Shown: in pieces, positions 2,397 to 22,438 of the stretch
Numbering within the stretch: position 1 is the stretch's first letter
How the letters are laid out: each line of letters begins with the position of its first letter
UHGV virus genome: UHGV-0114939
Direction: 5' to 3' (one strand)
Length of the DNA: 35,289 bases
From: a virus
Translations under genes and position numbers: made by a program
The notes under the pieces: generated by a model
Told to the model about the DNA's origin: nothing
Database searches by the model: none
What the model saw: the letters and a program-made list of their open reading frames with translations, nothing else

Positions 2397-2430
2397 GCTA
2401 CGCGCACGCGTACTTGTCCCGAAATACCAG
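2397..2430. promoter_or_regulatory. palindrome-containing repeat motif, copy 1 (GCTACGCGCACGCGTACTTGTCCCGAAATACCAG)
   Basis: Shares core GCTACGCGC(G)CGTACTTGTC..AAATA.CAG with 3789-3820 and 4076-4102. Confidence 0.4.
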
Positions 2431-2466
2431 AAACCGCCAGCCAGAGGATGATTTCCCTCTGGTGGT

Positions 2467-2748
2467 CTACCTTTGCCTCTTGCCGCCATTTAACCGGAAG
2501 GCGTTACCGTTCGGTTGCGCTATCCCCATGCGGTGTTGCGTTTCGGTAACAGCTTTATGCAGGTCGCCAAATTCCTCAACCTTCACGGGCGGGCGCTTCA
2601 CGTTCTCCAGACACGTTTCACGGCGGCGCTTTATCCATTCCCGATCATCGTCCTCGCTGCATAACAGCATGACTTCCATCCATCGTGCGGCAGCTCTCCG
2701 GTATAGCCCTTTTGACTCCAGCTCTTCAGCTTTCCTGTCCCTTATCAT
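2467..2748 (-). CDS. PerC-family transcriptional activator-like protein
   Basis: ATG at 2748 with GAGAGG RBS. N-terminus MIRDRKAEELESKGLYRRAAARWMEVM resembles the conserved PerC/Pch N-terminal signature (from memory). 93 aa. Confidence 0.5.
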   Translation of the reverse strand: MIRDRKAEELESKGLYRRAAARWMEVMLLCSEDDDREWIKRRRETCLENVKRPPVKVEEFGDLHKAVTETQHRMGIAQPNGNAFRLNGGKRQR

Positions 2749-2780
2749 TTCTGCCTCTCAGATTATATAGATAAGCAAAA

Positions 2781-2910
2781 AGGTGTTGGTTCAGTTGGTT
2801 CAGTTGGTTCAATTTGTAAAGATCGTTGTTTTTATTATGTTTTTCCTAAAATATTGAACCAACATCAACTCATTTTGAACCAACACAGCCCAGCTCTGAA
2901 CCAACAACAC
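2781..2910. repeat. iteron cluster 1: 3 tandem GTTGGTTCA (2785-2811) plus 3 TGAACCAAC at 21-bp spacing (2855, 2876, 2897)
   Basis: Direct reading. 2781-2821 is a perfect reverse complement of 11027-11067. Confidence 0.8.
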
Positions 2911-3007
2911 AGCGATAGCTTTGTGATTGGCCCGTTATTTTCTGGCTGATATTTGAGCGTATAACAGTGTTATACAGTGATATACTGTATGGATATTACT
3001 CACTGAT

Positions 3008-3463
3008 ATGGTCTTTGCAATGAGCAAATCTAATCTGGTCGCGTTCCGCATCCCATCTGAATTGCAGGATGAGTTTAATCGGTCTGTTCTCGCTTCTGGA
3101 GGGGATAAAACCTCCTGGCTTGTTGATGCGATTCGCATGAAGCTGGGACAGCCGGAAAAGTCTATTGATTCACGAATGCTTGGGCTCGTGGAGCGCATGG
3201 AAAAAGCTGCTGCGTCGCTTATTGCCGGAAAGCCGAACATCCCACCAAAGCCATATAACGAAACGGCAGTTATAAAGATCATTGCCGATACCATCCGACA
3301 GGGATTTGATAATGGGCGTGTGATAGCTGAACGGATCAATGAAGCAGGCTATCAAACAAAAGCTGGTAAAGCGTGGGATAAAGATATTTACAGCGCGTGG
3401 AAGCGTCAGGGAAGCAATGCTGAAAAGTTAAAAGCGGTGATTGATTGTAAGGTCAGCGTATAA
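3008..3463 (+). CDS. hypothetical protein, possible ribbon-helix-helix DNA-binding N-terminus
   Basis: ATG at 3008 (alternative ATG at 3020). N-terminal SNLVAFRIPSELQDEFNRSV has a beta-strand/helix pattern like RHH regulators. Operator-like palindrome TACAGT-GATAT-ACTGTA at 2973-2989 lies just upstream. Confidence 0.5.
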   Translation: MVFAMSKSNLVAFRIPSELQDEFNRSVLASGGDKTSWLVDAIRMKLGQPEKSIDSRMLGLVERMEKAAASLIAGKPNIPPKPYNETAVIKIIADTIRQGFDNGRVIAERINEAGYQTKAGKAWDKDIYSAWKRQGSNAEKLKAVIDCKVSV

Positions 3464-3542
3464 ACATGAGTGCCCATTGGAAAGCTGCTTGGGCCAATAC
3501 CTTTATACACCAGCAGGTGGTGACGATAGGTGAGGATCAGGA

Positions 3543-3764
3543 ATGAAAGGCAGAACGCCACACATTGAACATCAAGCCAACCACTTCTCGGATGTTCGCA
3601 ATGAGATGATTGCCATTCGCGGTGATATGCACGGCTTGGAGCGTCGAATTATTGATAAGATTGATGAAAATAGAGATAAGGCCAGTGAAAATCAAAAGTG
3701 GATCATCGGCCTGTTGATTTTATCAATTCTTATCCCGCTACTTATCGCATTGGTCACAAAATGA
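3543..3764 (+). CDS. XhlA-like small membrane protein (coiled coil plus C-terminal transmembrane helix)
   Basis: ATG at 3543 with GAGGA RBS. 73 aa ending in hydrophobic WIIGLLILSILIPLLIALV; architecture like phage XhlA/holin-associated proteins. Confidence 0.5.
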   Translation: MKGRTPHIEHQANHFSDVRNEMIAIRGDMHGLERRIIDKIDENRDKASENQKWIIGLLILSILIPLLIALVTK

Positions 3765-3788
3765 ATATCCAATGTGTATGCTGTCGAT

Positions 3789-3820
3789 GCTACGCGCGCG
3801 TACTTGTCGCAAAATATCAG
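3789..3820. promoter_or_regulatory. palindrome-containing repeat motif, copy 2 (contains perfect palindrome TACGCGCGCGTA)
   Basis: GCTACGCGCGCGTACTTGTCGCAAAATATCAG; see copies at 2397 and 4076. Confidence 0.4.
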
Positions 3821-4075
3821 GCAAAGGCCAGATTCAGAACGTCGTGATAACCACCAGCACAACATGAGATGTCATGTAACGCGATTTATCACGTCAGATA
3901 CATGTGATTGGTGTACCCGCATAAAACATTGTCATAGCGCGTCCTGTGCGCATATACGCCGATAATCAACACATCACCACCACTCTGTCTCATGTAGAGA
4001 ACACTTTTATGGTATCCCCCGCCATCGTGTGCGTACTGGTCGGACGCAGTTGCAAAAAATTTTGCAACTGATACC

Positions 4076-4102
4076 CCTCGCGCGCGTACTTGTCTCGAAA
4101 TT
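4076..4102. promoter_or_regulatory. palindrome-containing repeat motif, copy 3
   Basis: CCTCGCGCGCGTACTTGTCTCGAAATT. Partial copies GCGTACTGGTC at 4031-4041 and GCGCGTACTGT at 4162-4172. Near-palindrome CAGTTGC-A6T4-GCAACTG at 4048-4070. Confidence 0.4.
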
Positions 4103-4275
4103 GGTGTTTTGCTGTGGCAGTGATATCAGAAAAATCTTCCTGTTTCACATAAAGCGGATATGCGCGTACTGTAACGGCCCCATCAACTGGGAGCGGATTT
4201 GAGCCCCGAATGTGTAGGCAATGTCACTTAACGTTTGTCGCATACCTTCCAGAAAAAGCGATTCATGAATAATAG

Positions 4276-4300
4276 GGGCATGAATGCCCGGCGTACCGGG
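4276..4300. terminator. putative bidirectional intrinsic terminator (overlapping palindromes GGGCATGAATGCCC and CCCGGCGTACCGGG)
   Basis: GC-rich palindromes immediately 3' of the lipoprotein stop (4309), with T-rich tracts on both strands. Confidence 0.4.
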
Positions 4301-4308
4301 CTTATTAG

Positions 4309-5007
4309 TTAATTTGGTGCTTTAGGGTCAACATTAAAAGTTATATCACCTTCTGTATTTTTCCCGGCATAGCTAGCGGCTATTCTCGCCAACCCTTTGT
4401 AATCAGCAATTCCATCAGACTGTTGCGAGACGACTGAGCTACCAACTTTCCATAACATATTAATCTGCCGATTATTGAGATAAGCCTTGGCATCAAACGA
4501 CTGGAGTATCACCCCTGCGCCGTAGAACGTGTCCGTCACAGTTGTGTTATACGCGCCAGTAATTCCATAAGTAGGCGTATAAACTGTTGTTGCCGTTCCA
4601 GTGGTATTAGCTGTACCGTAGCCACCACCATAACTATTGAACGTGGTGTTCGAGTTTCCGTACGTTGTTGCTGAGCTCACACCAGTTTGCCCGTATATTG
4701 GGATGGTTACATTACGAGTATTTGAAATGGCCCCGCTTCTCAAAAAGTTCAAGAGAATTACCTGGTCAGCCAATTTTTCATCTTTAACTTGTGTATATCC
4801 TTGGCTTGATAAACTGGCGGCTACTACCGTAGCTATTTGAGTGTATTCAATCTGTTTGGTGTTCCAAAGTTCTTGGCTTGCGGGGATGATCAAGAACTTC
4901 TTACCGACAGATTGCCCGGAAGATAAAGCATTGACCGTTACTAACGGTTTTTGTACGCATCCAGCCAATAATGACAGGGATAATATTAAAAGAAGATTTT
5001 TAATCAT
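4309..5007 (-). CDS. lipoprotein (Thr/Gly/Tyr/Asn-rich), function unknown
   Basis: ATG at 5007 with AGGTGAG RBS. Signal peptide with lipobox MIKNLLLILSLSLLAG|C. Mature part rich in TTYGNSNTT / YGGGYG repeats. Confidence 0.75.
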   Translation of the reverse strand: MIKNLLLILSLSLLAGCVQKPLVTVNALSSGQSVGKKFLIIPASQELWNTKQIEYTQIATVVAASLSSQGYTQVKDEKLADQVILLNFLRSGAISNTRNVTIPIYGQTGVSSATTYGNSNTTFNSYGGGYGTANTTGTATTVYTPTYGITGAYNTTVTDTFYGAGVILQSFDAKAYLNNRQINMLWKVGSSVVSQQSDGIADYKGLARIAASYAGKNTEGDITFNVDPKAPN

Positions 5008-5157
5008 GATAATCTCACCTAAGAATTGCGTGGTTATAAATTATCATCACTGTAAGCGAATGTAAGCCACAGGCTCGTAATGTGATATGGAATTTTGATA
5101 GTTGGCTCAATATCAGTATGCCGTCCTTGGCTATTATGGTTTTGTTAGTTAGAGCGT

Positions 5158-7884
5158 CTATTCCCATTCGCTAACATCTTTCATGCCACTGAGGGTAGCT
5201 ACAATCCCGGCCCTTGTCAGTTTCACGAATTCTTCAGCCCCAACGGCATCACGAATTGCTTTCATGGCAATTTTATTGGCCGAAAATCGTTTCTCTGCTG
5301 CGGCGATCGCTGCTGGTGATGCCCCTGCGCGCACTGCTTTTGTAGCTTCCTGAACGGCTTTCTCTATCGCATATCGACCACTTCTTGTCGCCCCAATCTT
5401 AGCCACAGCATTTCTTAGCGCGCCACCAGCAACCAAACCACTAATCGAACCAATTACACCACCGCCAAAGCCTCCAGCGATCGCACCTGACTGTTGAACA
5501 CCGTTCATAATCACGCCGACGATCTTTGGAAGGCCTGAATCGAGCGTTTTGAGAGCCTCAGTTGTTCTTCCCGTGCGCTCTACGTATCGCTGCGGTCTGG
5601 TACTGGCTTTAGCGAGTACACCGAACTCTTTCATCATTCTACCGAGATCTGGCGCATGACGACTGATGGCGTTTACATTCTGCTGGGTCATGAGCTTGGC
5701 AAAATACTGGATACCTGACTCTTCACCGATTCCTCCCTTCTCTCCCTGCGCCACAGCATGCTGAAGAATAGATGCTATTGCAGGTTGGCGTTCTGCTTCC
5801 GGCAGCGCGGAGATAAGACGGTGAAAAGCTCCCGTTCCAGTGTTTGCGGATGCCTTAAGCGTATCGGCACCTTTTCTTACCATAGCGTCTGATGCGAGAT
5901 CTCGACCAAAAACAGATTCGGCATTTTGTTTGGCGATAATGTAACTTTTAGAGAGATCGTTAGCTTTCTGCCATTCTGTGAGGAAGTTTCCTTTTTCAGC
6001 CATGATGCGCATGTCATCAGTGATAGCTCTGCGCATTTCTCCGGCAATCCGGGCGGCATTGGCCTTACCTGCCCGGGTGTTTGCTTGTTCAGCATCAGCA
6101 AACTTAGCACGCCATGCCTTCATCCCGTCGAAGGTTATGCCGCCACCTTGGTTGTTGGCAGCCTGAAACTGTTTCATCTCCGGGCTGAGTGGAACATTGG
6201 CTGCTTTTTCTGCTTGGACGACAGCCATCCCATTACTCATTTTCATCCTTTCGCGTGGCATCGTGCTTCGCAGTTCTGCCCATGCCATATTCTCTGCTGT
6301 TTTCATATCACTGAGGCTCGCGATGATGCGCTCTTTAATTGCTGCGCTTTTTTCTGATGCGCTTCCAGACTCAGCACCGAAATCAGACAACTGCTTATTC
6401 AACTTTGAGGATATTTCATTGAAGGCCGTAAGGTGAGCATCCTGAACATTCCCAGGAGTTGATGCCAGAACACCTTCTGCTTGGGCAATTCCACGACTAC
6501 CTGAGCGCATTCCAGGCGTCAGGGTGTTGATATTAATACCAGTGATTTTCGCCGCCTTAGCGACATCATCTCTGACGTTTGATGCCTGCGATGCGATATG
6601 CTCTCGGCCTACGGCAGAACGCGCTGCTTTCGATACATCATTGGCGGTTTCCAGAGTATTTGCTGCCCCTAACACATGGCCTGATTGATTTGTATTACTC
6701 CGCAATACATCTCGCATTACGTCACTGGCTGTCTGTCCGCTCTTTATTAAAGCGCGTGCTCCTAGCGATCCTGCTAGGCCAATACCTGTCTCTTTTGCTA
6801 GGTCTTCTGGGCTGATCTGCCCGTTCTTTTGGGCGTTCACCAATGTACCTGGCAGGTTTTCTGCCAACATACTAGCCACCTTTGTGGCCGCACGTTCAGC
6901 ACGTGGAGCGTTGGCAACTGAAGAAGCTGCGGTAGCTGCCTTTCCTGCACCTAATCCTGTAATAAGGTAAGGTGCTAGCTGCTCACCAGCCTGCGCGTAT
7001 GGATCTGTAGGTTGGTCTACTGGGCGAAAGACAGGTGATATGGGCGTGTATGTGCCATCACCCACACCAAGCTTCTGAGCTGCCCATGCTCCGGCTGATT
7101 GCGCCGCATTGACTACCCCCACGCCTGCGTCCATTACATCAAACGGTATATTAGCAATCCCTCTGGCCATCTGCTCTGGCGCAGCTTTCAGCCCTGGCGA
7201 AAGATATTCCATCTCAGGATTAAGGTTAGACTTGGCTACTTGCTGCTGCGGTTCCCCGGCATTTTCATCGGCGAGAAACTGAGCTCTTTTCTGCTCCCAT
7301 GAACTGGCTGTTGGTAGTCCTGCTTCTATGTTCTTAAATTGCTGACGTTTTGCTTCCCATGCAGAAATATCTCCCACCTGAGAGATTTCTTTATCAAGCT
7401 CTGAGTAGTCAGGCTGCTGAAGATTGCGATGTTGACTGGTTTGTGCAAACTGCAAGATTTCACTGTCATCAGGGATTATTCCGGCATCTGCAAATTTACT
7501 TACGTAATTAGCCGTTTCATCTGGCAGTGTAGATTTACCGTTTCTGACGGCATTAATACGAGCATAGCCAGAATTATACCCAGCCAATGCCATACCTATA
7601 TCACCAAATCGCTTCATTCCTTTATTGAGATGGTTTGCTGCGATATCCATTTGCTTTTCAAATGGCAGTGAGCGCGGATCTGTTCCACGATAACCAGCAT
7701 CACTCATTACTGAGGGCATCAGTTGAGCAAATCCTCTAGCTCCTTTCGGTGACTCGGCACTTCCGTTACCACTAGATTCATTGCCAACTAATGTTTCCAT
7801 CGTCCCTGATGGGAAACCATATTTTTCATCGAGATGACGGGAATAGGCTTTCTGTTTTTCTGTCAGTTGTGCCATCATTGCCAT
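5158..7884 (-). CDS. phage internal virion / DNA-ejection-like protein with N-terminal lytic transglycosylase (SLT) domain
   Basis: 908 aa. N-terminus has SLT motifs (ETLVGNESSGNG...GFAQLMPS...ALAGYNSGYARI); the rest is Ala/Gln-rich and helical. Start overlaps the upstream gene by 10 nt. Confidence 0.8.
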   Translation of the reverse strand: MAMMAQLTEKQKAYSRHLDEKYGFPSGTMETLVGNESSGNGSAESPKGARGFAQLMPSVMSDAGYRGTDPRSLPFEKQMDIAANHLNKGMKRFGDIGMALAGYNSGYARINAVRNGKSTLPDETANYVSKFADAGIIPDDSEILQFAQTSQHRNLQQPDYSELDKEISQVGDISAWEAKRQQFKNIEAGLPTASSWEQKRAQFLADENAGEPQQQVAKSNLNPEMEYLSPGLKAAPEQMARGIANIPFDVMDAGVGVVNAAQSAGAWAAQKLGVGDGTYTPISPVFRPVDQPTDPYAQAGEQLAPYLITGLGAGKAATAASSVANAPRAERAATKVASMLAENLPGTLVNAQKNGQISPEDLAKETGIGLAGSLGARALIKSGQTASDVMRDVLRSNTNQSGHVLGAANTLETANDVSKAARSAVGREHIASQASNVRDDVAKAAKITGININTLTPGMRSGSRGIAQAEGVLASTPGNVQDAHLTAFNEISSKLNKQLSDFGAESGSASEKSAAIKERIIASLSDMKTAENMAWAELRSTMPRERMKMSNGMAVVQAEKAANVPLSPEMKQFQAANNQGGGITFDGMKAWRAKFADAEQANTRAGKANAARIAGEMRRAITDDMRIMAEKGNFLTEWQKANDLSKSYIIAKQNAESVFGRDLASDAMVRKGADTLKASANTGTGAFHRLISALPEAERQPAIASILQHAVAQGEKGGIGEESGIQYFAKLMTQQNVNAISRHAPDLGRMMKEFGVLAKASTRPQRYVERTGRTTEALKTLDSGLPKIVGVIMNGVQQSGAIAGGFGGGVIGSISGLVAGGALRNAVAKIGATRSGRYAIEKAVQEATKAVRAGASPAAIAAAEKRFSANKIAMKAIRDAVGAEEFVKLTRAGIVATLSGMKDVSEWE

Positions 7885-9194
7885 CCCTTAAGTTTTGCCT
7901 GATAGTAACTTTCCGGCAGATAGCCATGTGCGGTCACATAATCCTTAACCAGTGAAGGATCCTGCAACAGCATTTTGGTATCAGTTTCTTCGTCCTTAGA
8001 TTTGGTTACAGGAATACCGAGCCCGGCAATCTGTCGTTTCTGCATTCGAATAATTACGTCCTGCGCTTTATTCAACTCTCGCAAAAATGCCTCATTGCTG
8101 GTTGCTGACTTAATGCCATTTTGAGATTGCATAAGGGCAGCCCTTTCCCCTTCGGTTGGGTTAGAGCCAAAAGTCCCTTTGAGGCTAGGCAGAATAACCT
8201 TTAGGTTGTATTCATCAGCTTTGGCGCGTAGGCTTCGTGTGTCTTCTGCTACATCAGGAAGGAATCCAAACCCCAGCGTCAGGGGGTTATAGTTCTGCGA
8301 GCGGGTAACGGCCGAAGGATGTTTCCCTACAATTCCCGCCAGTTCATGACCCACTTCAAGCGCAGAGTTCAAGGAGTCGATGTTACCTGCAACAGTATTA
8401 ATTTTATCGTTCATCTTCTCCACTTTCGCCTGCTGTATCTTGCTCAGTTCAGCATTGAGCTTGTCTCTCTCGATGTCATTTTGAGCACGTCCAAGTCGTG
8501 CTTTCAGAACCATTTCTCTCGTGCGTAGTTGGTTATCGGATAGGACTTTGAACTGCTCCATATCGAGACGTCGATTACCCTGTTCCGCATTAACCTGAGC
8601 ATTATATGCGGATGTATCTGCGTTCTGCTGTGCAATGCTCTGCCCTTGCTGCTTCTCTTGAACACTAAAGTAACTATTTGGATCAGCATGGAGGTGGATG
8701 AGGTCAGTGATTCTGTTGAATTCCTGTGGGTCATTCTGCCAAGACTGATAAACCTCTTCAGCAGGAAGACCAAATCGCTGTAATACTGGATTTGCCTGCT
8801 GAATGGCCTTCTGCATGGTCAGTGGATCTCCAGTTTGTGACGCAAGACGCAGATTCATGGCAGCGTCAGCGGTCTGTCGATTTTGCTCAGCATCAATGAA
8901 TCCCATCTGTTTTTGAGAATCAGCCATAAACTGGGGATACTGGGCCATTAACTTCTGCACGCCAACACGATCATTATTAGCTACCGCACTACCCAACCGT
9001 GCCTGATATTCTTTTAACTGCTGGGAAATTTGCGCCTGCTGATTAATCTCAGCAACGCCTCTTAGCCCCTGTAGCGCCATTAAACCTACGTTTGGCTGCT
9101 GCTGATACTGCACAGGCTGAGGAACGGAAGAACGAGGAGCATTATCATTTTGCGGTGCCATGCTAGGCAGCCCGCCAAGTTGCCATGTCGCCAT
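7875..9194 (-). CDS. phage internal virion / ejection-like protein (Gln-rich)
   Basis: 439 aa; ATG at 9194 overlaps the stop of the upstream gene. Size and position match the middle ejection protein of podovirus modules (P22 gp20 / T7 gp15-like position). Confidence 0.65.
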   Translation of the reverse strand: MATWQLGGLPSMAPQNDNAPRSSVPQPVQYQQQPNVGLMALQGLRGVAEINQQAQISQQLKEYQARLGSAVANNDRVGVQKLMAQYPQFMADSQKQMGFIDAEQNRQTADAAMNLRLASQTGDPLTMQKAIQQANPVLQRFGLPAEEVYQSWQNDPQEFNRITDLIHLHADPNSYFSVQEKQQGQSIAQQNADTSAYNAQVNAEQGNRRLDMEQFKVLSDNQLRTREMVLKARLGRAQNDIERDKLNAELSKIQQAKVEKMNDKINTVAGNIDSLNSALEVGHELAGIVGKHPSAVTRSQNYNPLTLGFGFLPDVAEDTRSLRAKADEYNLKVILPSLKGTFGSNPTEGERAALMQSQNGIKSATSNEAFLRELNKAQDVIIRMQKRQIAGLGIPVTKSKDEETDTKMLLQDPSLVKDYVTAHGYLPESYYQAKLKGWQ

Positions 9195-9871
9195 TAGAAT
9201 CCAAGCCCCCCAACAAGACCAATAAGCCCACCACCAATAGCGCCGGCCGCAGTTCCTATTCCAGGAACAACGGAACCAAGTTGCGCACCCGCTAAAGCGC
9301 CTGATGCTGCCCCACCAATACCACGCGCAAGACTGGATGGCTGCTGCGCCTGACCTGCACGAATAGCGCCAAGCCCCTGCAAGAGTTGTCCGGTATTATT
9401 GGCGTAGTTTTGCCCTGCCGTTGCCTGCCCTGATGCCGCATTCATCCCGACATTTAGCAGGTTTCCATAATTTTGCATTTGCCCACTGAGCCAATTGTTA
9501 TAAAGCATGGGCGCAATGGAAGATAACTGGTTACTGGTAGCTGTTGAGCCAAGCCCCCCGGTAGCTTCTGCTGAGACAAGGTTCTGATAACGGGCCTGAT
9601 CTGCCTGTGTTTTATATAAACCAGAACCAAAGAAATCATTCGCGGCTTTATTCTGCCCTTCCAGAGTCATCAGTCCTTGTAGTTGTTGTAAAGCAGGCAA
9701 TCCGACTTCTGCATACGGCTTGAGATTATTCATCACCGTATTCCACTGCTCGCGCTGCAAATCAATTGCCTGCTGCTGGGCCTTCGCCTGAGCTTTAGAG
9801 GCACCACCATCACCGCCTTTTTCGTATACGGCACGATTGAGATGTTTATGAGCTATGTGGGTAATTAACAT
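9194..9871 (-). CDS. phage internal virion / ejection-like protein with glycine-zipper C-terminus
   Basis: 225 aa; ATG at 9871 with AAGGAA RBS. C-terminus GAQLGSVVPGIGTAAGAIGGGLIGLVGGLGF; size similar to P22 gp7. Confidence 0.6.
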   Translation of the reverse strand: MLITHIAHKHLNRAVYEKGGDGGASKAQAKAQQQAIDLQREQWNTVMNNLKPYAEVGLPALQQLQGLMTLEGQNKAANDFFGSGLYKTQADQARYQNLVSAEATGGLGSTATSNQLSSIAPMLYNNWLSGQMQNYGNLLNVGMNAASGQATAGQNYANNTGQLLQGLGAIRAGQAQQPSSLARGIGGAASGALAGAQLGSVVPGIGTAAGAIGGGLIGLVGGLGF

Positions 9872-10326
9872 TCGCTGAATTCCTTATATTGTTGCCGAGT
9901 TAACTGATAAAGCGTTACGCCGACGGGTTTACCACATCTGATATAAGCATCATCAAGGTGACCAACACGGGTAGCGCCAAGCAAACGGATAATTGCCCGT
10001 CCGTATTTGGTGGTGTCAGGAACCATGGTAATGCTGTTAAGGAATGGTGAGTTTTCGAGAAGCCATTTGCAGAATAATCGATGCCCTTGCAGTGCATATT
10101 CACCACGGAATCCGGGGTCGTACACCGCATGGCATTCAACAACGCTATGCCAGAAGTTACGCACTTCATGAACGCCAGCCAGCACTAATCCTTCGTAGAT
10201 GCCGAGATATACCGCATCAGGCTTGATGTAGTACGTGTGCCCCGGCTCAACAATATTTTCGGTATTGCCTGGCTCGTTAAGAAAGGCCTGTAATCGCACA
10301 GGGTTATCAATAAATTTTAGTTCCAT
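9865..10326 (-). CDS. hypothetical phage protein, first large gene of the ejection-like module
   Basis: 153 aa; ATG at 10326; 7-nt overlap with the next gene. Confidence 0.6.
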   Translation of the reverse strand: MELKFIDNPVRLQAFLNEPGNTENIVEPGHTYYIKPDAVYLGIYEGLVLAGVHEVRNFWHSVVECHAVYDPGFRGEYALQGHRLFCKWLLENSPFLNSITMVPDTTKYGRAIIRLLGATRVGHLDDAYIRCGKPVGVTLYQLTRQQYKEFSEC

Positions 10327-10342
10327 GCGATGCCATCCATTT

Positions 10343-10504
10343 TCACATACAGCCTGCCAGCGCCTTATCTATTAACCCTCGTGCAATTTCATGCAGAGTT
10401 GGCGCTACTCCAATTCCTGATTTTTTACGCTGCTCTTCCTGAATTTTCTTTATCGCTTCCATTTGCTTCTCACTTATCAATACCGGCTTTACTGAAATAG
10501 CCAT
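10343..10504 (-). CDS. small (53 aa) putative ribbon-helix-helix DNA-binding protein, below the ORF-track threshold
   Basis: Hand-translated: ATG at 10504 preceded by AAGGGGG; MAISVKPVLISEKQMEAIKKIQEEQRKKSGIGVAPTLHEIARGLIDKALAGCM; stop TGA at 10343-10345, 16 nt before the 153-aa gene start. Confidence 0.5.
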   Translation of the reverse strand: MAISVKPVLISEKQMEAIKKIQEEQRKKSGIGVAPTLHEIARGLIDKALAGCM

Positions 10505-10597
10505 AACGCCCCCTTAGAACTGTATAAAACAACAGTTATTATAGTTTCACAAATCGCAATATTCATCATCGTAATTGCAAAATATGAAACAAATAGC

Positions 10598-10630
10598 ACA
10601 AAAAAATGCCACCGCTCAGTAGCTGGTGGC
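10598..10630 (-). terminator. rho-independent terminator downstream of the primase gene
   Basis: Minus strand reads GCCACCAGCTACTGAGCGGTGGC followed by a 7-nt T run (hairpin 10608-10630, A run 10600-10606 on plus). Confidence 0.55.
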
Positions 10631-10948
10631 ATCGTTCTGTGTGTCAGGTTTTGACAGGTTTTTTATGGACTCTAAAAACTATATTTATGGTGTCGCATTA
10701 CTCTTCACGGCAGGCGCTTTTCAGTTCTGCCCTTGCTTCTGGCTCCATTGGTAATTTGATTCGCGATCAGCTATGCGGATGGTTTGCTGAACAGGCATAA
10801 CAACTTCTCAGAGGCTGTTTTTTGAACTACGAAAATTTCGTAGTGCTCACTTTCAAAAACGTCACGCCCTTGTACACAGGATTTTACGAAAGTCTCGTAA
10901 AACACTCTCTGATGCCAGCCAGGTGTTGTGCGCATCAATTCAGTCACA

Positions 10949-11067
10949 TTGTGTTGGTTCAAAATACCGTGTTGTTGGTTCAGTGTTGGTTCAATAAAAA
11001 GAATAAAATCCTTATAAAACAATACTCTTTACAAATTGAACCAACTGAACCAACTGAACCAACACCT
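10949..11067. repeat. iteron cluster 2: GTTGGTTCA at 10953, 10974, 10985 and 3 tandem TGAACCAAC at 11037-11063; mirror image of cluster 1
   Basis: 11027-11067 is an exact reverse complement of 2781-2821. Sits 22 bp 3' of the primase-helicase gene, like the P4 crr/ori repeats bound by alpha. Confidence 0.8.
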
Positions 11068-11088
11068 TTTCTACGCACATGAAGAAGC

Positions 11089-13848
11089 TCATTCTTCAGA
11101 TGAGTTATAATCTCCTGGCTGGTAATTGAGTACATAAACGTTTATTTGTCGTCCCTGAATACGTGGTGATTTTCTTTGGTATCCACGACCGCTGTTTGGT
11201 GGGGTTAGCATCCCGGCTTTTTTCAACACTTCAGCAAACTGTTTTGCGTTGAAACCACATGCGATCTCCTTTTCAAATGTGGCCGGGAATGTGTAGAAAA
11301 TCATTGGGCTTTCGTCATGTTCTCCACGCTGACGGTATCCGGCTAAATCTTTGATGGGCAAATCTGCCGGGCTGTATGGAAATGGTGCAAAACGGCTAAG
11401 CCCATAGGCATTAAGAAATGCCTCCGTTTGTTCAATAATCTGCTGATGCTCTTTGTTACCTGTGCCGAACTCACGCAACCATGCGTTATAGCTGTGCTGT
11501 ATCGCATCACGGCATGTCTGAGCATCCCAGCCTGTTACAACCTCGCCTAACAACAATGCGGCCTCCAGAATGGCAAATCGCGCGGCTACACGGTGAACCT
11601 GCTCACCATAATCGGATGGGATCAGGCTTCTCCATCTGCTTTCGCAATCACGAACGGTTTTAATAGCCTGTTGCTGGTGGTCTGCCAGCCATTTAATCCA
11701 CTCACGCCCGGACGCGCCGTGGTGATGCTGGTAAGCGTCTTTCAGTGCGTCTGCGTGCTGTTTTCCGTTCTGGTAATCGTGAAAGCGTACTGCTTTACTC
11801 AACGGAATATTCAGCAGTCGCACCAGTTGCCCGGCTTTGGTTTTTCGCCCGGAAGTAGCGATAAATGTTTCTAAATCCATTTCTCCGGTGCTGATTGCCA
11901 CTGTACGCCAACGTTTTAGATCCCGGTTTCCACCATCTTTAGCGCCTTGCAGTTTCCCTACACCGTTAAATAACGCATAGGCAGACTGTGAAACGCTGAC
12001 AGGATCAGCGCCCTGACCAACTTCATCAAGCGGCATTAGTCCGTCATTGTGGGCGGCGGCCTCATTTGCCAGCCCCAGCGCGGTTCCGTACCACGTCAGC
12101 CGCAGTAAATCAGGGTTGCCGTATAAGCTGCTCGCCACGTTTGCCGTGGTGGTCTTACCTGCGCTCGACTGCTCATAGAAATGAATGCCGAACCCGTCAG
12201 CGCCCACCAGCCCAATCAATGGCGCTGCCAGTGCTGCGCCGATCCCGGTCATCATTGAATAGTTACCAAAGGCCAGACGCGCCACGTTATCACGCCAGCT
12301 TTTCGCGCTCCCTGAGACGGTATATCCGGCTGCGGCTGAGCTTCTCCCGCTGAACAGCACAGGATTTTCAGGTGTTCCGATGATTTCCCCATCAGGCATG
12401 ATGTACGCTCCGCATTGCCAGCCAGTGGCATGAGCAACACGCCACAATTCACGAGAGCCACTGCGTTGTAGCCAGTCTGCCAGTATTGCTCTGAGGCTGC
12501 TTTTGGTCGTGACATTTACCCCACCAGCTTTAAGTGTGCGCCATCCTTCACGTTCACCAATATCAGCCAGTGGAATGGCAGCGGTTGTCGGCGTTTCAGA
12601 ACCAAACGACAGCCAGCGAAGAATGAGATACTGGTCTTTATCGTCTCTGCCAGTACCGATAACGCTTAACGGAGAACATAACCAGCTTTCGTTATTGATG
12701 ATTTCTCCACTCTGGCTGTCAGCTCTCGGAGATACCCAATAAATACCATCCTCGCGGCTTTCTATTCTTGGTTTCAGTGGGTCGGTATCCATAACCTTAA
12801 AATCGCTTCCCTCAATGGTCTGTGGCTCCTGTTTCACGCCATTACCCTGTGGTTGGTACATTGACTTATTGAACGCTTCTGTGGCGCATTTAATGCCGTG
12901 TTTTTGGTGGTAATCATTCCAGTCTGCTTTGTGATCTGTCGGGGGTAATGCCACCCATCCAGAAACAGATAAAGCTGCTTTTTCTGCTGCTATTCTCCCC
13001 GTGTTTTGTCTTCCTTCGCTGTGGTCGTTATCCGCAGCAATGATGATTTGTGCTGAAGGAAATTTATCCCGCAGTACCTGGGCGACATATAACAGGTTCC
13101 CGGCATCAATCGCCGCCACTGTCAGCGCCTCTGGACGAATTAAATGGGCAGATAATGCCGTTGCCAGCCCTTCTGCGATTAAGATGCTCTGTGTTGTTTC
13201 TGGTGCGTTTATGGCGTGATATGCCCCTCGCTTTGCCGAACCTGTCAGGAGTCTTTTTTCACCATGTGAGGTAATAGTCTGTGCTGCTGTGACTGCGCCG
13301 GATTTATCCACCAGCGCCAGCAACAGAGATCCATCGGGCAACACGGGGAATGTAAAATCACCTACCCCTTTCGCAACCAGATAATCAGATTTGCCGTTTA
13401 CAGCCTTTCTGCGCATGTCATCAAACTGACGGGAAAACGTATCCCGTCTTTGTTGTTCGTCCTTCTCTGCCCTTTTCAGGCGCTCCTGTTCGCGTCGCTG
13501 GCGCTCGGTTTCCAGTTGTTCCCGTTTCTGGCTGGTGGCTTCTGGTGTTTCCGTTGTCCGGTAATCAATACCCAGAACATCAGCGGCAAGAAGCGCCGCC
13601 TCTGTTGTGTCGCAGTTATTTACGCGTTTAATTAAATCCAGCCCATCACCAGCGCCGCACTGATTACAGATGAAGCTACCGCGCCCGTTGTCGTCGAACC
13701 GGAATCGATCTTTGCCCCCACATGCAGGGCAGGGAGCATGACGGCGCGGAGAGTCAGGGACATTTATGTTCAGGCAGCCCAGCACATGAGGCCAGTTGTT
13801 TTCAGACGCACTGATAACCTGACGGATAAGATCAATGTTTCGCATCAC
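11089..13848 (-). CDS. P4-alpha-like primase-helicase (zinc ribbon + Toprim + DUF927-type NTPase)
   Basis: Zinc ribbon CPACGG...FICNQCG; Toprim acidic motif IIAADNDH; Walker A YEQSSAGKTTT. Track start at 13848 is a GTG; an ATG follows at 13845. Confidence 0.85.
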   Translation of the reverse strand: MMRNIDLIRQVISASENNWPHVLGCLNINVPDSPRRHAPCPACGGKDRFRFDDNGRGSFICNQCGAGDGLDLIKRVNNCDTTEAALLAADVLGIDYRTTETPEATSQKREQLETERQRREQERLKRAEKDEQQRRDTFSRQFDDMRRKAVNGKSDYLVAKGVGDFTFPVLPDGSLLLALVDKSGAVTAAQTITSHGEKRLLTGSAKRGAYHAINAPETTQSILIAEGLATALSAHLIRPEALTVAAIDAGNLLYVAQVLRDKFPSAQIIIAADNDHSEGRQNTGRIAAEKAALSVSGWVALPPTDHKADWNDYHQKHGIKCATEAFNKSMYQPQGNGVKQEPQTIEGSDFKVMDTDPLKPRIESREDGIYWVSPRADSQSGEIINNESWLCSPLSVIGTGRDDKDQYLILRWLSFGSETPTTAAIPLADIGEREGWRTLKAGGVNVTTKSSLRAILADWLQRSGSRELWRVAHATGWQCGAYIMPDGEIIGTPENPVLFSGRSSAAAGYTVSGSAKSWRDNVARLAFGNYSMMTGIGAALAAPLIGLVGADGFGIHFYEQSSAGKTTTANVASSLYGNPDLLRLTWYGTALGLANEAAAHNDGLMPLDEVGQGADPVSVSQSAYALFNGVGKLQGAKDGGNRDLKRWRTVAISTGEMDLETFIATSGRKTKAGQLVRLLNIPLSKAVRFHDYQNGKQHADALKDAYQHHHGASGREWIKWLADHQQQAIKTVRDCESRWRSLIPSDYGEQVHRVAARFAILEAALLLGEVVTGWDAQTCRDAIQHSYNAWLREFGTGNKEHQQIIEQTEAFLNAYGLSRFAPFPYSPADLPIKDLAGYRQRGEHDESPMIFYTFPATFEKEIACGFNAKQFAEVLKKAGMLTPPNSGRGYQRKSPRIQGRQINVYVLNYQPGDYNSSEE

Positions 13849-14203
13849 CGTACCCCACGTGGTCTATAGCGTTTGCGATATGGCTAACCAGCATCTGCCA
13901 CTTGGTTATTCCGTAATCAGTCAGCATGCCATCATTGTTTAGCCACATATCAAATTCAGCGGTTGTCGCAAGTTTCCACTTATCGCCGTGGGCAGTCCTC
14001 ATTGCTGGGTACATGAATGCGCAAATCAGATCACAAACATCTGACGGCTTCAGAGATGTAGTAATGATGCGTCCCTCTGGCGTCTGAATTGCCATTTTCT
14101 CTTCACCAGTAGAATGAAGGTTATGAATCCACACAGCACCAGCAATCTTTGCCACCTGCTCTCCGATTGCGGAGCTAAGCGCCATTTCTGCATTTTCACG
14201 CAT
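13832..14203 (-). CDS. hypothetical protein
   Basis: ATG at 14203 with GGGAGG RBS; overlaps neighbours by 8 and 17 nt (translational coupling). Confidence 0.6.
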   Translation of the reverse strand: MRENAEMALSSAIGEQVAKIAGAVWIHNLHSTGEEKMAIQTPEGRIITTSLKPSDVCDLICAFMYPAMRTAHGDKWKLATTAEFDMWLNNDGMLTDYGITKWQMLVSHIANAIDHVGYGDAKH

Positions 14204-14537
14204 GAGAACCTCCCGCTACAGTTGCGCCCATGTCATTAACCATGCTTTGCCATATCTCACGCCCGACGTCAGTCAATCCGTCCTTAGTGACGCAACGATC
14301 AAGAAGCTCGATCCCCACGGTTTCCCACTGCGGGTAGAACACTTTCATGGCTGCCAGTGTGTAGCTATCGATCAGGCTGCGAACGCCTTTTACTCCATTG
14401 ACGATTTCCACGCGGACGGCCTCGCCGTCCGCATCAACCATGAAATAGTCCCCGCCGCTGGTGGAGGTAATGTGGTTATACAGTGCCGACGCATACTTAT
14501 TTGCCAGCGCATTCAGTCGGAAATTTTTAGTAATCAT
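14196..14537 (-). CDS. hypothetical protein
   Basis: ATG at 14537 with GAGGA RBS; 113 aa. Confidence 0.6.
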   Translation of the reverse strand: MITKNFRLNALANKYASALYNHITSTSGGDYFMVDADGEAVRVEIVNGVKGVRSLIDSYTLAAMKVFYPQWETVGIELLDRCVTKDGLTDVGREIWQSMVNDMGATVAGGSHA

Positions 14538-17850: not shown

Positions 17851-18282
17851 TTAGGCGGCGTTAAACGCGTTCGGGTAGAGTTTCAGAATGTCGGCAATTT
17901 CCTGCTGAGAAAGTCCGTTGTGATCATTTATGTTCGCAAGATGGTTAACATGAGTGATCACTTTCAGAACATCACCACGGCAGGAGAAACGGTAGCGAAG
18001 GTGTGTTCCGATACCATCAGGATTCTTTTCGTCGATACGCTCCAGAGTGATTCCAAGCTGGCGTTCTAACTCTGTTGCATAGTTACGACCAGAAGACAGA
18101 CGGCAGTAGCGAAGAATGTCATTTTCTGTCCATCCCTCTATACCAGTACGCAGCATATAGACTCTGGCACGATGCTTTTTCGGTGTGCGCTTTGGTGCTT
18201 GAAGGGATTTTGTCAGGGGCGTAACATCAGATACGCGAATATCTGAATTAGCCGCCTGTAATGGGCGGTTTTTCTTTTCCAT
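17851..18282 (-). CDS. hypothetical protein (P4-like island regulatory region)
   Basis: ATG at 18282 with GAGGTGG RBS; overlaps the AlpA stop. Confidence 0.55.
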   Translation of the reverse strand: MEKKNRPLQAANSDIRVSDVTPLTKSLQAPKRTPKKHRARVYMLRTGIEGWTENDILRYCRLSSGRNYATELERQLGITLERIDEKNPDGIGTHLRYRFSCRGDVLKVITHVNHLANINDHNGLSQQEIADILKLYPNAFNAA

Positions 18283-18485
18283 CAGGCCACCTCGTCTCTA
18301 GATTCTAATATACACTTCTCAATCCATTCATCTATTTCAGACTCAACAAAAGCAATTGCCCGACTTCCAATTTTTACCTGTTTAGGGAACCTCCCCTGAC
18401 TAATAAGACGATAAATCCATGCTTTGCTATAACCAGTTCGCCTTTGAACTTCAGAGAGACGAATTAATGAATTGTAATTAGCCAT
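18282..18485 (-). CDS. alpA: AlpA-family phage transcriptional regulator / excisionase-like HTH protein
   Basis: 67 aa: MANYNSLIRLSEVQRRTGYSKAWIYRLISQGRFPKQVKIGSRAIAFVESEIDEWI, the typical AlpA signature. Confidence 0.8.
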   Translation of the reverse strand: MANYNSLIRLSEVQRRTGYSKAWIYRLISQGRFPKQVKIGSRAIAFVESEIDEWIEKCILESRDEVA

Positions 18486-18912: not shown

Positions 18913-20127
18913 TCATGCGTGTTTTTCAAACACCATATGCACCACATTTCCGCCATGCTCGAGAGAATCCATATAGTCGGCATACCATTGAAGCATCTCC
19001 CGCCGTCCATCCAGATATTGCGCATGGTTGTATGTGCCACGAATTGAGTTCTTATCAACGTGAGCGAGCTGCGTTTCTATCCACGCGGTGTTATAGCCCT
19101 GCTCATGCAAAATCGTGCTCATAGTGTGTCGGAACCCATGACCAGTTACACGTCCAGCGTAGCCAATGCGCTTAAACACTTGGTTTATGCTGGCCTCACT
19201 CATTGTTTTCCTTGGATCATTGCGCCCGGGAAACATAAGAGGGTAATTGCCTGTTATTTCTCTAATCTTCCCAATAAGCGAAAGAGCCTGCTCAGACAAT
19301 GGCACAATATGAGGCCGCCGCATTTTCATACGTGAAGCGGGTATCTCCCATATAGCCTTGTTGAAATCAATTTCATCCCATAATGCGCCACGTAGTTCGC
19401 CAGTTCGCAAGCCGGTGATAATCAGTAGACGAGCCGCCATAACAACCAATGCGCTTCCTGAGTAACTGGACAATGCCTTGAAAAAATCAGGTAATTCTTT
19501 GGTCGTAAGGAAAGGGTAATGATTAGATTCATGGCCTTGCATCGCGCTAGTAAGGTCTGGTGCAGGGTTATACTCTGCGCGACCAGTGACTATTGCATAA
19601 CGGAAAACTTCCCCGCACCGCTGCCTCACTTTTTTGGCTTTTTCTGTCGCACCGCGCCCCTCGATGCGCCGCAGCACATTCAGAAGTTCAAGTGGTTTGA
19701 TTTCGGCGATTGGTTTTTTGCCAATGTAAGGGAACACATCTTTGTTGAAGGCTTCGAGGATGTCTGAAGCATAACCAGCAGACCATTTTTTTAATTTGCT
19801 GCTGTGCCACTCAAGGGCAATATCTTTGAAGGTGTTGTTTAACTGCGTTTCCCGGGCAATCTTTTCCTCTCGTTTCGCTTCCATCGGATCGATACCACCA
19901 GCGATACCTCTTTTCGCATCTTCTCGTTTTGCCCGAGCATCGGCTAGAGTAACCTCAGGATACACACCTAGTGCCAATAGCTTCTCTTTACCAGCTACAC
20001 GATATTTAAGTCGCCAGTATTTACCTCCATTAGGTTTTACCAAGAGATACAAACCGCCACCATCGGCCAGCTTGTAAGCCTTCTCTTTTGGCTTGGCTGT
20101 GTCTATTTGACGGGCATTGAGTTTCAC
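18913..20127 (-). CDS. P4-type tyrosine integrase
   Basis: GTG start at 20127 with GGAGGT RBS. N-terminal arm-binding signature LADGGGLYLLVKPNGGKYWRLKYR; C-terminal catalytic HGFRHT and Tyr region RGTYNHAQY. Lies next to the tRNA-derived att core. Confidence 0.9.
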   Translation of the reverse strand: MKLNARQIDTAKPKEKAYKLADGGGLYLLVKPNGGKYWRLKYRVAGKEKLLALGVYPEVTLADARAKREDAKRGIAGGIDPMEAKREEKIARETQLNNTFKDIALEWHSSKLKKWSAGYASDILEAFNKDVFPYIGKKPIAEIKPLELLNVLRRIEGRGATEKAKKVRQRCGEVFRYAIVTGRAEYNPAPDLTSAMQGHESNHYPFLTTKELPDFFKALSSYSGSALVVMAARLLIITGLRTGELRGALWDEIDFNKAIWEIPASRMKMRRPHIVPLSEQALSLIGKIREITGNYPLMFPGRNDPRKTMSEASINQVFKRIGYAGRVTGHGFRHTMSTILHEQGYNTAWIETQLAHVDKNSIRGTYNHAQYLDGRREMLQWYADYMDSLEHGGNVVHMVFEKHA

Positions 20128-20292: not shown

Positions 20293-20328
20293 TGGTGCCG
20301 ATAATAGGAGTCGAACCTACGACCTTCG
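20293..20328 (-). other. att core, copy 1: identical to the 3' end of tRNA-Thr(CGU), including CCA
   Basis: Minus strand reads CGAAGGTCGTAGGTTCGACTCCTATTATCGGCACCA. A 14-nt tRNA 5' fragment GAGCAGCGCATTCG lies at 20372-20385, separated by a 41-nt hairpin-containing insert; no intact acceptor stem, so not a functional tRNA. Confidence 0.6.
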
Positions 20329-20443
20329 ATTCCAATGACGTGTTTCACAAGTCATTGATTCTTCGAACCGAATGCGCTGCTCCTGAAAGGCAAAACTGAC
20401 ACAACTGATCACGGTTGCCCCTGAATATTAGATCGGGGGAAAG

Positions 20444-21646
20444 ATGAAATACAAGCCTAATGCGTACCTTGTTAAAGAAAACTCGTCGGTATACTCCGTC
20501 AAGGTCACTATTCCGCCTTATATGCGTTCCCTTTTTGGGAATCGAACAGCATTCATGCGTACAACAGGCACGGCAGATATCAGGGAAGCCCGAATCATTC
20601 GTGACAAAGTCATGCACGAGTTTTTTGCTATCAGAGACAGACTCAAGCCAAAACCACAACGTAACAGTGTTGATCGCGTCCTGGTGGAACTGCGCTCTAT
20701 CAACCAGCATGTAAGCCAAAATGATGGGATAGACTTCGCCACGGCTCGTGTGTGTCCCTCCCTTGTCCAACTGCGGGATGAATTTATTGTCCAACACAAT
20801 GACAGGCGCAAGCTGTCTACCTTGAGCAAGTACATTAAGGCGGTGGAGGTCTTCACGGCTCATTTCCGGCGTAAGGATTTCCAGTTGCAGGAAATCAACA
20901 GGACTATGGTCACCGATTGGTTAGACAGCGCCAAGCAGGAGAAAGCCAGCCAGACACTGGCGAATTATCTTGGCTGTCTGTCCCAACTAGTGGCACTGGC
21001 TCAGAACCGTTATCACGATGCGCCGAAAGAGAATGTATTCGCGGGCCACAAACTGGACGTGCGCCATGATCGAGAAAGCTACGAACCCTTTAGCGGGGAT
21101 GAACTAGCTAAGGTGTATGCGGTGCTTGATGAAGAGATGAAAGCCGTTGCGATGGTGGGAATGTATAGCGGTATGCGCCTTAACGAAATCTGCTCTCTGC
21201 AAATCAGCAATATCAAAACCGTTGAGGGGGTATGGTGTTTCGAGGTGACGGAGGGTAAGACACGCAATGCGGCTCGCCTGGTTCCAATTCATAGCCGATT
21301 GACGACACTCGTTAAAGACCTCATCCAGAACAACCACAATGGCTTCTTATTCTACCATGCCAGCATCACAGAACGTGCAGACGGCAAGCGCTCAACGTGG
21401 CATACACAGCGATTTACACGGGCTAAACGTAAAGCGTTGGCTGAGAAAGGCACTGAGCGGAAGGTGTTTCATAGTCTGCGGGGAATGTTCATCAGCCAGC
21501 TTGATCGTGGTGGAGTCCCAGAGGACAGGATCGCATTGATTGTGGGTCATGAGCGCGGGAAAACCGAATCATTCCGCACCTATAGCCAAGGGGCTAGCAT
21601 GAAGGAGTTGGCGGATTATGTAGACATTGTCTCACATAGCATATAA
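20444..21646 (+). CDS. tyrosine integrase (site-specific recombinase)
   Basis: ATG at 20444 with GGGGGA RBS. Catalytic-region motifs HSLRGMF and RTYSQG. Diverges from the att core, opposite the element A integrase. Confidence 0.85.
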   Translation: MKYKPNAYLVKENSSVYSVKVTIPPYMRSLFGNRTAFMRTTGTADIREARIIRDKVMHEFFAIRDRLKPKPQRNSVDRVLVELRSINQHVSQNDGIDFATARVCPSLVQLRDEFIVQHNDRRKLSTLSKYIKAVEVFTAHFRRKDFQLQEINRTMVTDWLDSAKQEKASQTLANYLGCLSQLVALAQNRYHDAPKENVFAGHKLDVRHDRESYEPFSGDELAKVYAVLDEEMKAVAMVGMYSGMRLNEICSLQISNIKTVEGVWCFEVTEGKTRNAARLVPIHSRLTTLVKDLIQNNHNGFLFYHASITERADGKRSTWHTQRFTRAKRKALAEKGTERKVFHSLRGMFISQLDRGGVPEDRIALIVGHERGKTESFRTYSQGASMKELADYVDIVSHSI

Positions 21647-21792
21647 AAGTAAAACACACCATAAAAACAGCCAAAAAAAAACAATAGTTATAACTTAATA
21701 AAATTTAATGCTAATTAATTCAAATCATTATCATCTCGCTTCATTTTTTATTTATTTGGAAATATATTGATACAAAAAAGGACGGATTGACT

Positions 21793-22434
21793 ATGACTCA
21801 GCGAATTCAGCAGATCCAACGTATCGTGGAACAGCAAGGAATCACTCAACTGGTACATTTCACTAAGGCCGAAAATCTTCCAAGTATAATGGAACATGGG
21901 ATAGTCCCGATTTCTCGGATTGGAGAGTTTGGTATCACGCCTGCCACTAATGATCAACTTCGCCTTGATGGTCATTTAGATGGTACGTCTCTTTCTATCA
22001 CCTTTCCTAATCACAGAATGTTCTACAAATATAGGCTGGAAAATCAAGGGGTTGATTGGGTGGTGTTAGGTATAAAACCATCTATTCTATGGACAAAGGA
22101 TTGCGCGTTTTGTCGCCACAATGCTGCGGATGCTCGAATAAGCGTCAAGGCATTGGATGATTTGAGGCTTCCTGAATCACTTGCGGGAATGTTTAGCGAG
22201 ATAGACGGGTATGAAACACGAGATGGTCAAAAACTTTTAACATCCGATCCAACAGACGAACAAGCAGAAGTGTTAGTTTTTGATGTAATTGAACCTGAAC
22301 TGATCTTAGGGGCGGCCTTCAATAGCAGAACCGCAAACACACTTTACCAAAATCTCTTCGGAGAAAAAAAGATTATACTTAATGACAAAACCAATGGTTT
22401 ATTTGGTTCTCGTTCATTTAAGCGTAAGTGGTAA
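21793..22434 (+). CDS. DarT-like (DUF4433) DNA ADP-ribosyltransferase toxin candidate
   Basis: Track start at 21787 is TTG; ATG at 21793. N-terminal LVHFTKAENLPSIMEHG and C-terminal DEQAEVLVFD match the DarT hallmarks H-F-T...NL.SI..G and QAE-hLV (from memory). Lower GC than flanks. Confidence 0.65.
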   Translation: MTQRIQQIQRIVEQQGITQLVHFTKAENLPSIMEHGIVPISRIGEFGITPATNDQLRLDGHLDGTSLSITFPNHRMFYKYRLENQGVDWVVLGIKPSILWTKDCAFCRHNAADARISVKALDDLRLPESLAGMFSEIDGYETRDGQKLLTSDPTDEQAEVLVFDVIEPELILGAAFNSRTANTLYQNLFGEKKIILNDKTNGLFGSRSFKRKW

Positions 22435-22438
22435 AACA

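Follow-up and report, generated by a model that had tools for sequence, protein, structure and literature searches.

Inspection of the virus genome UHGV-0114939 (35,289 nt, the whole of which is termed the window) showed it to match Escherichia coli chromosomes. Judged by gene content and attachment site, its first 20.3 kb are a phage-inducible chromosomal island (PICI) of the EcCIMP1 type, a phage satellite mobilised by P22-like podoviruses. This island carries two inverted copies of an iteron module 8.2 kb apart, module A adjoining the gene for a primase-helicase (Pri-Rep) and module B adjoining the gene for a PerC-family regulator. By its position and anatomy, module A is assigned as a canonical origin of the class described for PICIs and Staphylococcus aureus pathogenicity islands (SaPIs), while module B matches this class in anatomy only. 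On balance, both modules appear to be functional Pri-Rep sites of a split or duplicated origin, and we infer that Pri-Rep would bind the two of them after helper induction.

A repeat finder returned inverted arms of 55 nt, 95% complementary and separated by 8,183 nt, at 2778-2832 and 11016-11070. The longest exact inverted stretch is 45 nt (2778-2822 against 11026-11070) and contains the perfect 41-nt ends reported in an initial annotation of this sequence. The iteron GTTGGTTCA occurs in 12 exact copies in the window, all inside the two clusters; in 100 dinucleotide-preserving shuffles the mean was 0.37 copies and the maximum two, no shuffle reaching 12. The initial annotation had described the clusters as inverted with respect to each other, which is correct but incomplete, since each is also internally inverted: three tandem iterons on one strand are followed by a 43-bp spacer and by three phased iterons on the opposite strand. 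The two modules, of 120-133 bp each, are inverted copies of one another. In module B the tandem iterons are on the + strand (starts at 2785, 2794 and 2803, spanning 2785-2811), the spacer covers 2812-2854 (19% GC), and the phased iterons are on the - strand at 2855, 2876 and 2897, with a 21/21 bp spacing. In module A the phased iterons are on the + strand at 10953, 10974 and 10985, the spacer covers 10994-11036 (16% GC), and the tandem iterons are on the - strand (starts at 11037, 11046 and 11055, spanning 11037-11063). The three tandem and three phased copies noted earlier for each cluster are therefore present, while the phasing of about 21 bp holds for module B and not for module A, where it is 21/11. 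The two spacers have their first 11 bases in common (the box ATTTGTAAAGA) and otherwise differ in sequence, so the two copies are not a fresh duplication. A partial copy of the CTGGCTGGC motif found beside module A, TTTTCTGGCTG, adjoins module B at 2938-2948.

The origin described for PICIs and SaPIs lies just 3′ of rep and has 6-12 iterons and an AT-rich centre flanked on either side by two or more iterons, those of one side pointing opposite to those of the other; a self-loading Rep helicase recognises it by means of a C-terminal winged-helix domain (PMC6092414, PMC9371898). The pri-ori of EcCICFT073 drives autonomous replication (PMC6092414). Opposite iteron sets around an AT-rich region are found in both modules (3+3 iterons, 43 bp, 16-19% GC). 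The site 3′ of pri-rep is occupied by module A and not by module B: the 45-nt arm of A ends 18 bp from the pri-rep stop codon (11089-11091), slightly closer than the 22 bp first noted, while B lies 8.2 kb away, where it occupies 133 of the 259 bp between the divergent start codons of the PerC gene and orf151.

Predicted iteron recognition and the origin layout among relatives

The helicase of Pri-Rep is of the SaPI-Rep type (match to 8tch, E 1e-11), and the model of its C-terminal domain resembles SaPI Rep and the winged-helix DNA binder TcpK. The comparative set consisted of 77 loci with a gene related to that of the primase, each species being represented by one genome and each locus by up to 10 kb of flank. 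Arrays of GTTGGTTCA were found straight after the primase gene in about 45 of the 77, and other iteron words occur in the same layout in relatives (GTTGTCTCA, ACGGGTTAY, GTCGGTTCA, GTCGGGTA, GTGGGTTA, TTATCCCA and GGTCGGTT). In about 55 related loci, changes in the iteron word go together with changes in the C-terminal domain of the primase, which bears out the tie between the iterons and the adjacent primase-helicase that the initial annotation had proposed. Six of the 919 alignment columns split the GTTGGTTCA group (24 sequences) from the GTTGTCTCA group (five sequences); five of these six fall at residues 892-911, which read GYQRKS-PRI in the former and GYQGRV--RE in the latter. For the ACGGGTTAY group, all 20 separating columns are located within residues 821-904. 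The protein columns that track the word thus lie almost exclusively at residues 821-911, which strongly, though indirectly, indicates that it is the C-terminal domain that reads the iterons.

A second, inverted iteron set, the usual state in this primase family, was present in about 40 of the 55 loci, across different iteron words and at 0.06-9 kb from the first. About 28 loci have compact origins of 260-315 bp directly after the primase gene, in which tandem iterons are followed by a 43-bp AT-rich spacer, opposite-strand phased iterons, a conserved CTGGCTGGCAG centre, further phased iterons, a second spacer and inverted tandem iterons. The second spacer of most compact origins is 34 bp long and has 56-74% GC, and since it is GC-rich their second set would be an accessory binding array rather than a melting site. 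A minority have an AT-rich second spacer of 42-45 bp and are therefore two full modules back to back; the shortest gap, 0.06 kb, separates the back-to-back modules of locus L035. At 12 split loci the second module is displaced by 0.16, 0.4, 0.95, 2.1, 4.6, 5.8, 6.1, 6.7, 7.1, 8.3, 8.7 and 8.9 kb, and the split series includes the window (8.2 kb) and E. coli 042 (7.4 kb). All displaced modules have an AT-rich spacer (12-28% GC), 43 bp long except at L037 (52 bp).

Twelve distal modules were aligned, those of the window and 11 loci; 11 come from named genera (Lonsdalea, Rosenbergiella, Chimaeribacter, Pantoea, Serratia, Leclercia, Cedecea and others) and one, L048, from a metagenome-assembled genome of uncertain genus. 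Conservation reaches at least 90% in the iterons, ATTTGTAAA and TGTTTT, and the remainder of the spacer has diverged. This pattern suggests that module B is under selection. The simplest reading of the layouts would be that insertions separated the two halves of an originally double-module origin, genes having accumulated between the two iteron sets in one sublineage; in the window these genes include a P22-type ejection operon. The series of gaps from 0.06 to 9 kb suggests that an origin can tolerate the build-up of accessory and helper-exploitation genes within it.

Some further variation was seen. A TATATA(A/T)A box stands 8-12 bp outside the tandem iterons of every distal module (2762-2776 in the window) and is absent from the proximal ones. 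Yersinia pekkanenii (L033) has three bipartite origin copies within 6 kb (8154-8421, 12736-13003 and 13917-14214); its primase match spans 3.9 kb rather than 2.8 kb, and an HNH endonuclease domain is present in a homologous-protein match from this species, pointing to an insertion inside the primase gene or close by. In an uncultured Erwinia metagenome-assembled genome (L061:3988-4050), the tandem iterons have expanded from three to seven.

These data can be accommodated in a mechanism modelled on the SaPIs. The helper would activate alpA-driven transcription, leading to the production of Pri-Rep, whose C-terminal domain would bind the iterons of module A; the 43-bp AT-rich spacer would then melt and helicase hexamers would load, as expected by homology. 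Module B should bind Pri-Rep too, since it has the same anatomy as A, and would either fire as a second origin or act in the manner of the P4 crr site, as a distant cis partner through Rep-Rep contacts or DNA looping. Rep bound to module B would probably also affect the promoters of the PerC gene and orf151, since the module fills about half of the divergent intergenic region.

Other explanations for module B and the inverted ends

The proposal that both modules are functional Pri-Rep sites has to be weighed against three sets of observations. The first concerns copies of module B that lack module A. A module-A query was found at full length in 365 E. coli genomes, while a module-B query matched 552; in about 150 genomes, a number derived from BLAST coverage classes and not from genome-by-genome inspection, the A query matched only through the arm it has in common with B, that is, B was present without A. 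These genomes retain module B after the helicase, the C-terminal domain and module A have been replaced by a replicon of the DUF5906 type, so that the protein presumed to bind B is not needed for B to persist. This persistence is the strongest argument against B being obligatory for replication; the swapped elements are only 3-5% diverged, however, so neutral decay of B would not yet show. The second is that about 11 relatives have a proximal module only, within the 10-kb flank, and in these the second set is perhaps non-essential, or located further away. Finally, given the GC-rich second spacer of most compact origins, the notion of two origins may hold only for the AT-rich type seen in the window.

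The replicon swap could be followed in the island of strain CE0032f (L079), which has the same backbone but has the region corresponding to window positions 10907-12838 (helicase, C-terminal domain and module A) replaced. The replacement (L079:13899-17499) encodes a DUF5906-type helicase and carries its own iterons, GGTGGTACAGGT, in two inverted clusters flanking two small open reading frames (ORFs). The N-terminal Toprim primase is kept at 88% nucleotide identity, the swap falling inside a single gene. Homology between the window and L079 ends at 10906, 8 nt before the CTGGCTGGC motif, and at 2885, inside the inner iterons of module B. Further, more than 150 genomes matched the B query only through position 146, and others only from position 133 onward, the matches thus breaking at the point seen in L079. 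The origin modules are thus seams for the exchange of satellite modules, with the helicase, C-terminal domain and origin moving as one unit, and the joint inheritance of these three supports cognate recognition. The idea that the segment had been acquired by recombination at iterons is accordingly upheld in part, as regards the homology breakpoints at the module edges.

It is somewhat unlikely that module B is mainly regulatory, with Pri-Rep or another protein using an iteron array in the PerC/orf151 promoter region to couple flanking expression to replication. Such a device would resemble the Rep autoregulation at plasmid iterons. It would fit the location of B between two divergent start codons, its retention in replicon-swapped elements, and the distal modules of other genera, which adjoin an orf151 homologue with operator-like direct repeats and have an outer TATATA box in common. 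However, B keeps the full anatomy of an origin. An operator alone would have no need of the inner phased iterons or of the 43-bp AT-rich spacer. Consensus scans gave no sigma-70-like promoter in 2400-3200, or around either module, and the TATAAT box at 2762-2767 is a poor -10 candidate since it runs into the ribosome-binding region and just 13 nt separate it from the PerC ATG. A regulatory role would, in any case, be compatible with origin function.

Distinctly unlikely is the possibility that module B is a functionless by-product, an origin duplicate left by recombination between related satellites at their conserved origins and marking a module boundary. The E. coli homology breakpoints at or inside the modules (2885 and 10906 in the comparison with L079), the orphan copies of B and the relatives with no second module within 10 kb would all be expected of such a relic. 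Against this, the distal modules of the window and the 11 other loci retain every iteron and an unchanged spacer length despite divergence of the spacer sequence, and a second inverted set recurs in about 40 of 55 loci with different iteron words.

The initial annotation had also suggested that the segment might be invertible. Exact inverted repeats of 45 nt do bracket it, and this length suffices for rare RecA-dependent inversion. A synthetic inverted junction (the left flank joined to cluster 2 reversed and the interior reversed) was searched for in 5,426 complete E. coli genomes: 656 matched parts of it, but none covered 80% or more of it in a single place. The flanking genes keep the same orientation in all 12 split relatives, in which an orf151 homologue directed toward the primase adjoins the distal module on its inner side and the genes beside module A are directed away from the primase. 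Further, no invertase or recombinase was recognisable among the interior ORFs or next to the segment (Pfam, PHROG and NCBIfam), and inversion would set the ejection operon against the single transcription direction of the island. The segment is in a fixed orientation among the assembled genomes. Assemblies report the majority orientation, and inversion is rejected at the level of assembled consensus sequences; a switch operating by recombination between the 45-55-bp inverted arms is highly improbable. Even more improbable is a transposon-like mobile cassette: terminal inverted repeats are present, but no transposase is encoded, the outer flanks (...GATAAGCA and CTACGCAC...) show no target-site duplication, the module matches in E. 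coli occur only in these islands beside the PerC or the primase gene, and the supposed ends are iteron arrays that covary with the primase. A generic repeat was rejected, since GTTGGTTCA occurs in the window only in the two clusters, and is absent from the helper-type phage Kapi1, and the modules match E. coli genomes only inside these islands.

The island and the genes between the modules

The island, from position 1 to ~20,300, lies at the thrW tRNA-Thr site next to proA. On the - strand it encodes, in this order, a tyrosine integrase, AlpA, an AntA-type antirepressor, an Ash-family protein and the 919-aa primase-helicase and, further on, PerC and a Panacea-domain protein (Table 1). The core of the attachment (att) site, TCCTATTATC, is found at 20300-20309 on the reverse strand, inside a tRNA-Thr 3′ fragment (20296-20330) at the island end; ARAGORN detected no tRNA in the window, which holds this fragment only. 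The thrW integrase, TCCTATTATC, alpA, pri-rep and PerC, together with the lack of capsid and terminase genes, place the island among the EcCIMP1-type PICIs. EcCIMP1 itself is a 19,963-bp element at thrW of E. coli MP1, for which excision, circularisation and transduction were observed only with the helper Kapi1, a P22-like podovirus (Pick, Stadel and Raivio, ISME J 2025, PMC11773190); that paper makes no mention of iterons, a replication origin or ejection proteins. The window is 98.9% identical to it over 12.5 kb, with nucleotide identities in the range of 95-99%. The two have the thrW site, att core, gene order and both modules in common and are essentially the same element, EcCIMP1 having 12 iterons and a 48-nt exact inverted repeat; they differ in the accessory region outside PerC (Panacea and other genes), in the orf151 region and in the spacing of the inner iterons of module A, which is 21/21 in EcCIMP1. 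A degraded P22-like prophage was also considered and rejected, the phage database giving short matches only and the element being a conserved, experimentally mobile PICI.

Table 1. Positions of the origin modules and of genes of the island in the window
Feature	Position	Strand	Remarks
PerC-family regulator	2467..2748	-	Just outside module B; EcCIMP1_025 in PMC11773190
Module B (cluster 1 of the initial annotation)	2778..2910	.	133 bp; tandem and phased GTTGGTTCA sets
orf151	3008..3463	+	N terminus predicted to be ribbon-helix-helix-like
orf73, small ORF	3543..3764	+	No Pfam match
orf232 (232 aa)	4309..5007	-	After the ejection operon; no family match
gp16-like DNA transfer protein	5158..7884	-	N-terminal SLT lytic transglycosylase; 25% identity to Kapi1 counterpart
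P22 gp20-like ejection protein (Inj_translocase)	7875..9194	-	26% identity to Kapi1_057
P22 gp7-like ejection protein	9194..9871	-	PF25688, E 7e-73; 58% identity to Kapi1_056
P22 gp14-like (DUF2824)	9865..10326	-	84% aa identity to Kapi1_055
orf53, small conserved 53-codon ORF	10343..10504	-	Heads the ejection operon
CTGGCTGGC motif	10914..10922	-	Beside module A; centre marker of compact origins in relatives
Module A (cluster 2 of the initial annotation)	10950..11070	.	Canonical PICI origin by position and layout, which match the published PICI/SaPI origin
Pri-Rep, 919 aa	11089..13848	-	Zn-ribbon, Toprim_3, DUF927 helicase; C-terminal domain (~815-919) predicted iteron binder
AlpA-family regulator	18282..18485	-	PICI master activator in EcCIMP1
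Tyrosine integrase	18913..20127	-	

The segment between the modules had been described as cargo. It is indeed enclosed by them but is not arbitrary, consisting of a P22-type ejection operon (gp14-gp7-gp20-gp16) with all genes intact and on the same strand as pri-rep, while orf151 and orf73 read in the opposite direction. A terminator scan gave a single terminator-like hairpin after module A (10608-10623, - strand), upstream of orf53. Pfam, PHROG and NCBIfam scans of orf151, orf73, orf232 and orf53 returned nothing usable. Upstream of orf151 are the direct repeats TATAACAGTG and TTATACAGTG (2960-2979), and orf151 homologues adjoin the inner side of the distal module in L012, L019, L020, L025, L059 and L060. 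A 50-nt stretch comprising TTTTCTGGCTG and TATAACAGTG/TTATACAGTG (2934-2983) recurs with 98% identity in Salmonella phage SEN22, at a site annotated under 'DNA transfer protein', which hints at an exchange of the regulatory region upstream of orf151 with P22-like phages.

In published PICI layouts, interference and packaging genes sit downstream of pri-rep and ori (PMC6092414); here the ejection operon occupies their position. Across the relatives, the slot between the origin modules is filled in a lineage-dependent way with genes for virion genome delivery or the tail tip. P22-type ejection proteins were seen in E. coli (window 5158-10504) and in Leclercia L031, and tape-measure proteins of 892 and 1136 aa in L054:12947-18912 and L020:14632-18042. 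The Serratia loci have a Dit-like protein, a weak match to a baseplate hub (gp41-like) and a gpV spike. The slots compared include L034:13173-15021 and L037:12976-16108, and L059:13629-18012 has an SLT protein with a P4 Beta-family protein. In E. coli 042 (L082), pri-rep, origin A, the ejection operon, origin B and PerC follow each other near dinD/yicG with different gp20 and gp16 alleles; this same layout at another chromosomal site indicates that the block moves between integration modules. DNA-delivery proteins matched to the helper morphotype may be supplied by the satellites themselves. A wider proposal, unlikely as it stands, would be that the origin has opened into two Rep-bound halves delimiting an exchangeable slot for delivery genes suited to the helper morphotype (P22-type ejection here, tape-measure proteins in Leclercia/Chimaeribacter, and Dit, hub and spike in Serratia), both origin copies serving as recombination anchors and as cis elements that tie the replication and expression of the module to Pri-Rep. 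The ejection, tape-measure and hub proteins in the slot hint at DNA delivery supplied by the satellite, a supply that the satellite literature examined does not discuss.

A second element of about 14 kb follows in tandem at thrW (20330-34300), with its own integrase and a second copy of the att core at 34295. A major capsid protein is annotated for it in matching E. coli genomes, and it may be a capsid-forming PICI.

Comparison with known systems

The island, its helper and the general design of PICI origins were already known. By sequence and structural prediction, the window would have in common with EcCICFT073, SaPIbov1 and SaPI5 an origin 3′ of pri-rep, opposed iterons, and a self-loading helicase related to SaPI Rep with a C-terminal winged helix. 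It differs from them in having two complete, inverted origin modules 8.2 kb apart with helper-exploitation genes in between; the PICI-origin literature examined describes one origin next to rep, and a second full copy was not found in it.

The initial annotation had likened the clusters to the ori and crr sites of phage P4, bound by the alpha protein, a comparison that holds for the layout and not for the iteron word. Both systems have two separated sets of the same iteron several kb apart, one of them immediately 3′ of the primase-helicase gene, and in P4 both sets are needed in cis. The P4 GenBank record puts crr 45 bp beyond the 3′ end of the alpha gene, at a distance of 4.7 kb from the ori repeats. 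In P4, however, the origin is the distant set, the one adjoining alpha has an auxiliary role, the alpha gene lies between the two, and neither is a mirror copy of the other. Every annotated P4 repeat resembles TGTTCACC, unlike GTTGGTTCA. The description of Pri-Rep as alpha-like applies to the N-terminal Zn-ribbon and Toprim region, which is homologous (33% identity, residues 8-362, E 2e-41). It does not extend to the helicase, which is D5_N/DUF5906/Pox_D5 in P4 and DUF927, of the SaPI-Rep type, in the window, or to the C-termini, which have no detectable relationship. Since only the N-terminal primase is homologous, while helicase family, C-terminal domain and iteron word differ, membership in the P4 ori/crr system was rejected.

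The gamma, alpha and beta origins of plasmid R6K offer another comparison: one initiator, pi, binds iteron sets kilobases apart, and the distant sites cooperate in cis by looping. The initiator family is unrelated to Pri-Rep, and the distant R6K sites are single or half iterons, not full origin copies.

In the satellite literature examined we found no account of a second full origin copy in inverted orientation, of split origins as a series running through the family, or of a correspondence between iteron word and C-terminal domain. EcCIMP1 with Kapi1 is a tractable system in which module B constitutes a concrete cis element, and a conserved second origin copy kilobases away would add to the replication control of PICIs a layer resembling either P4 crr or a dual origin.

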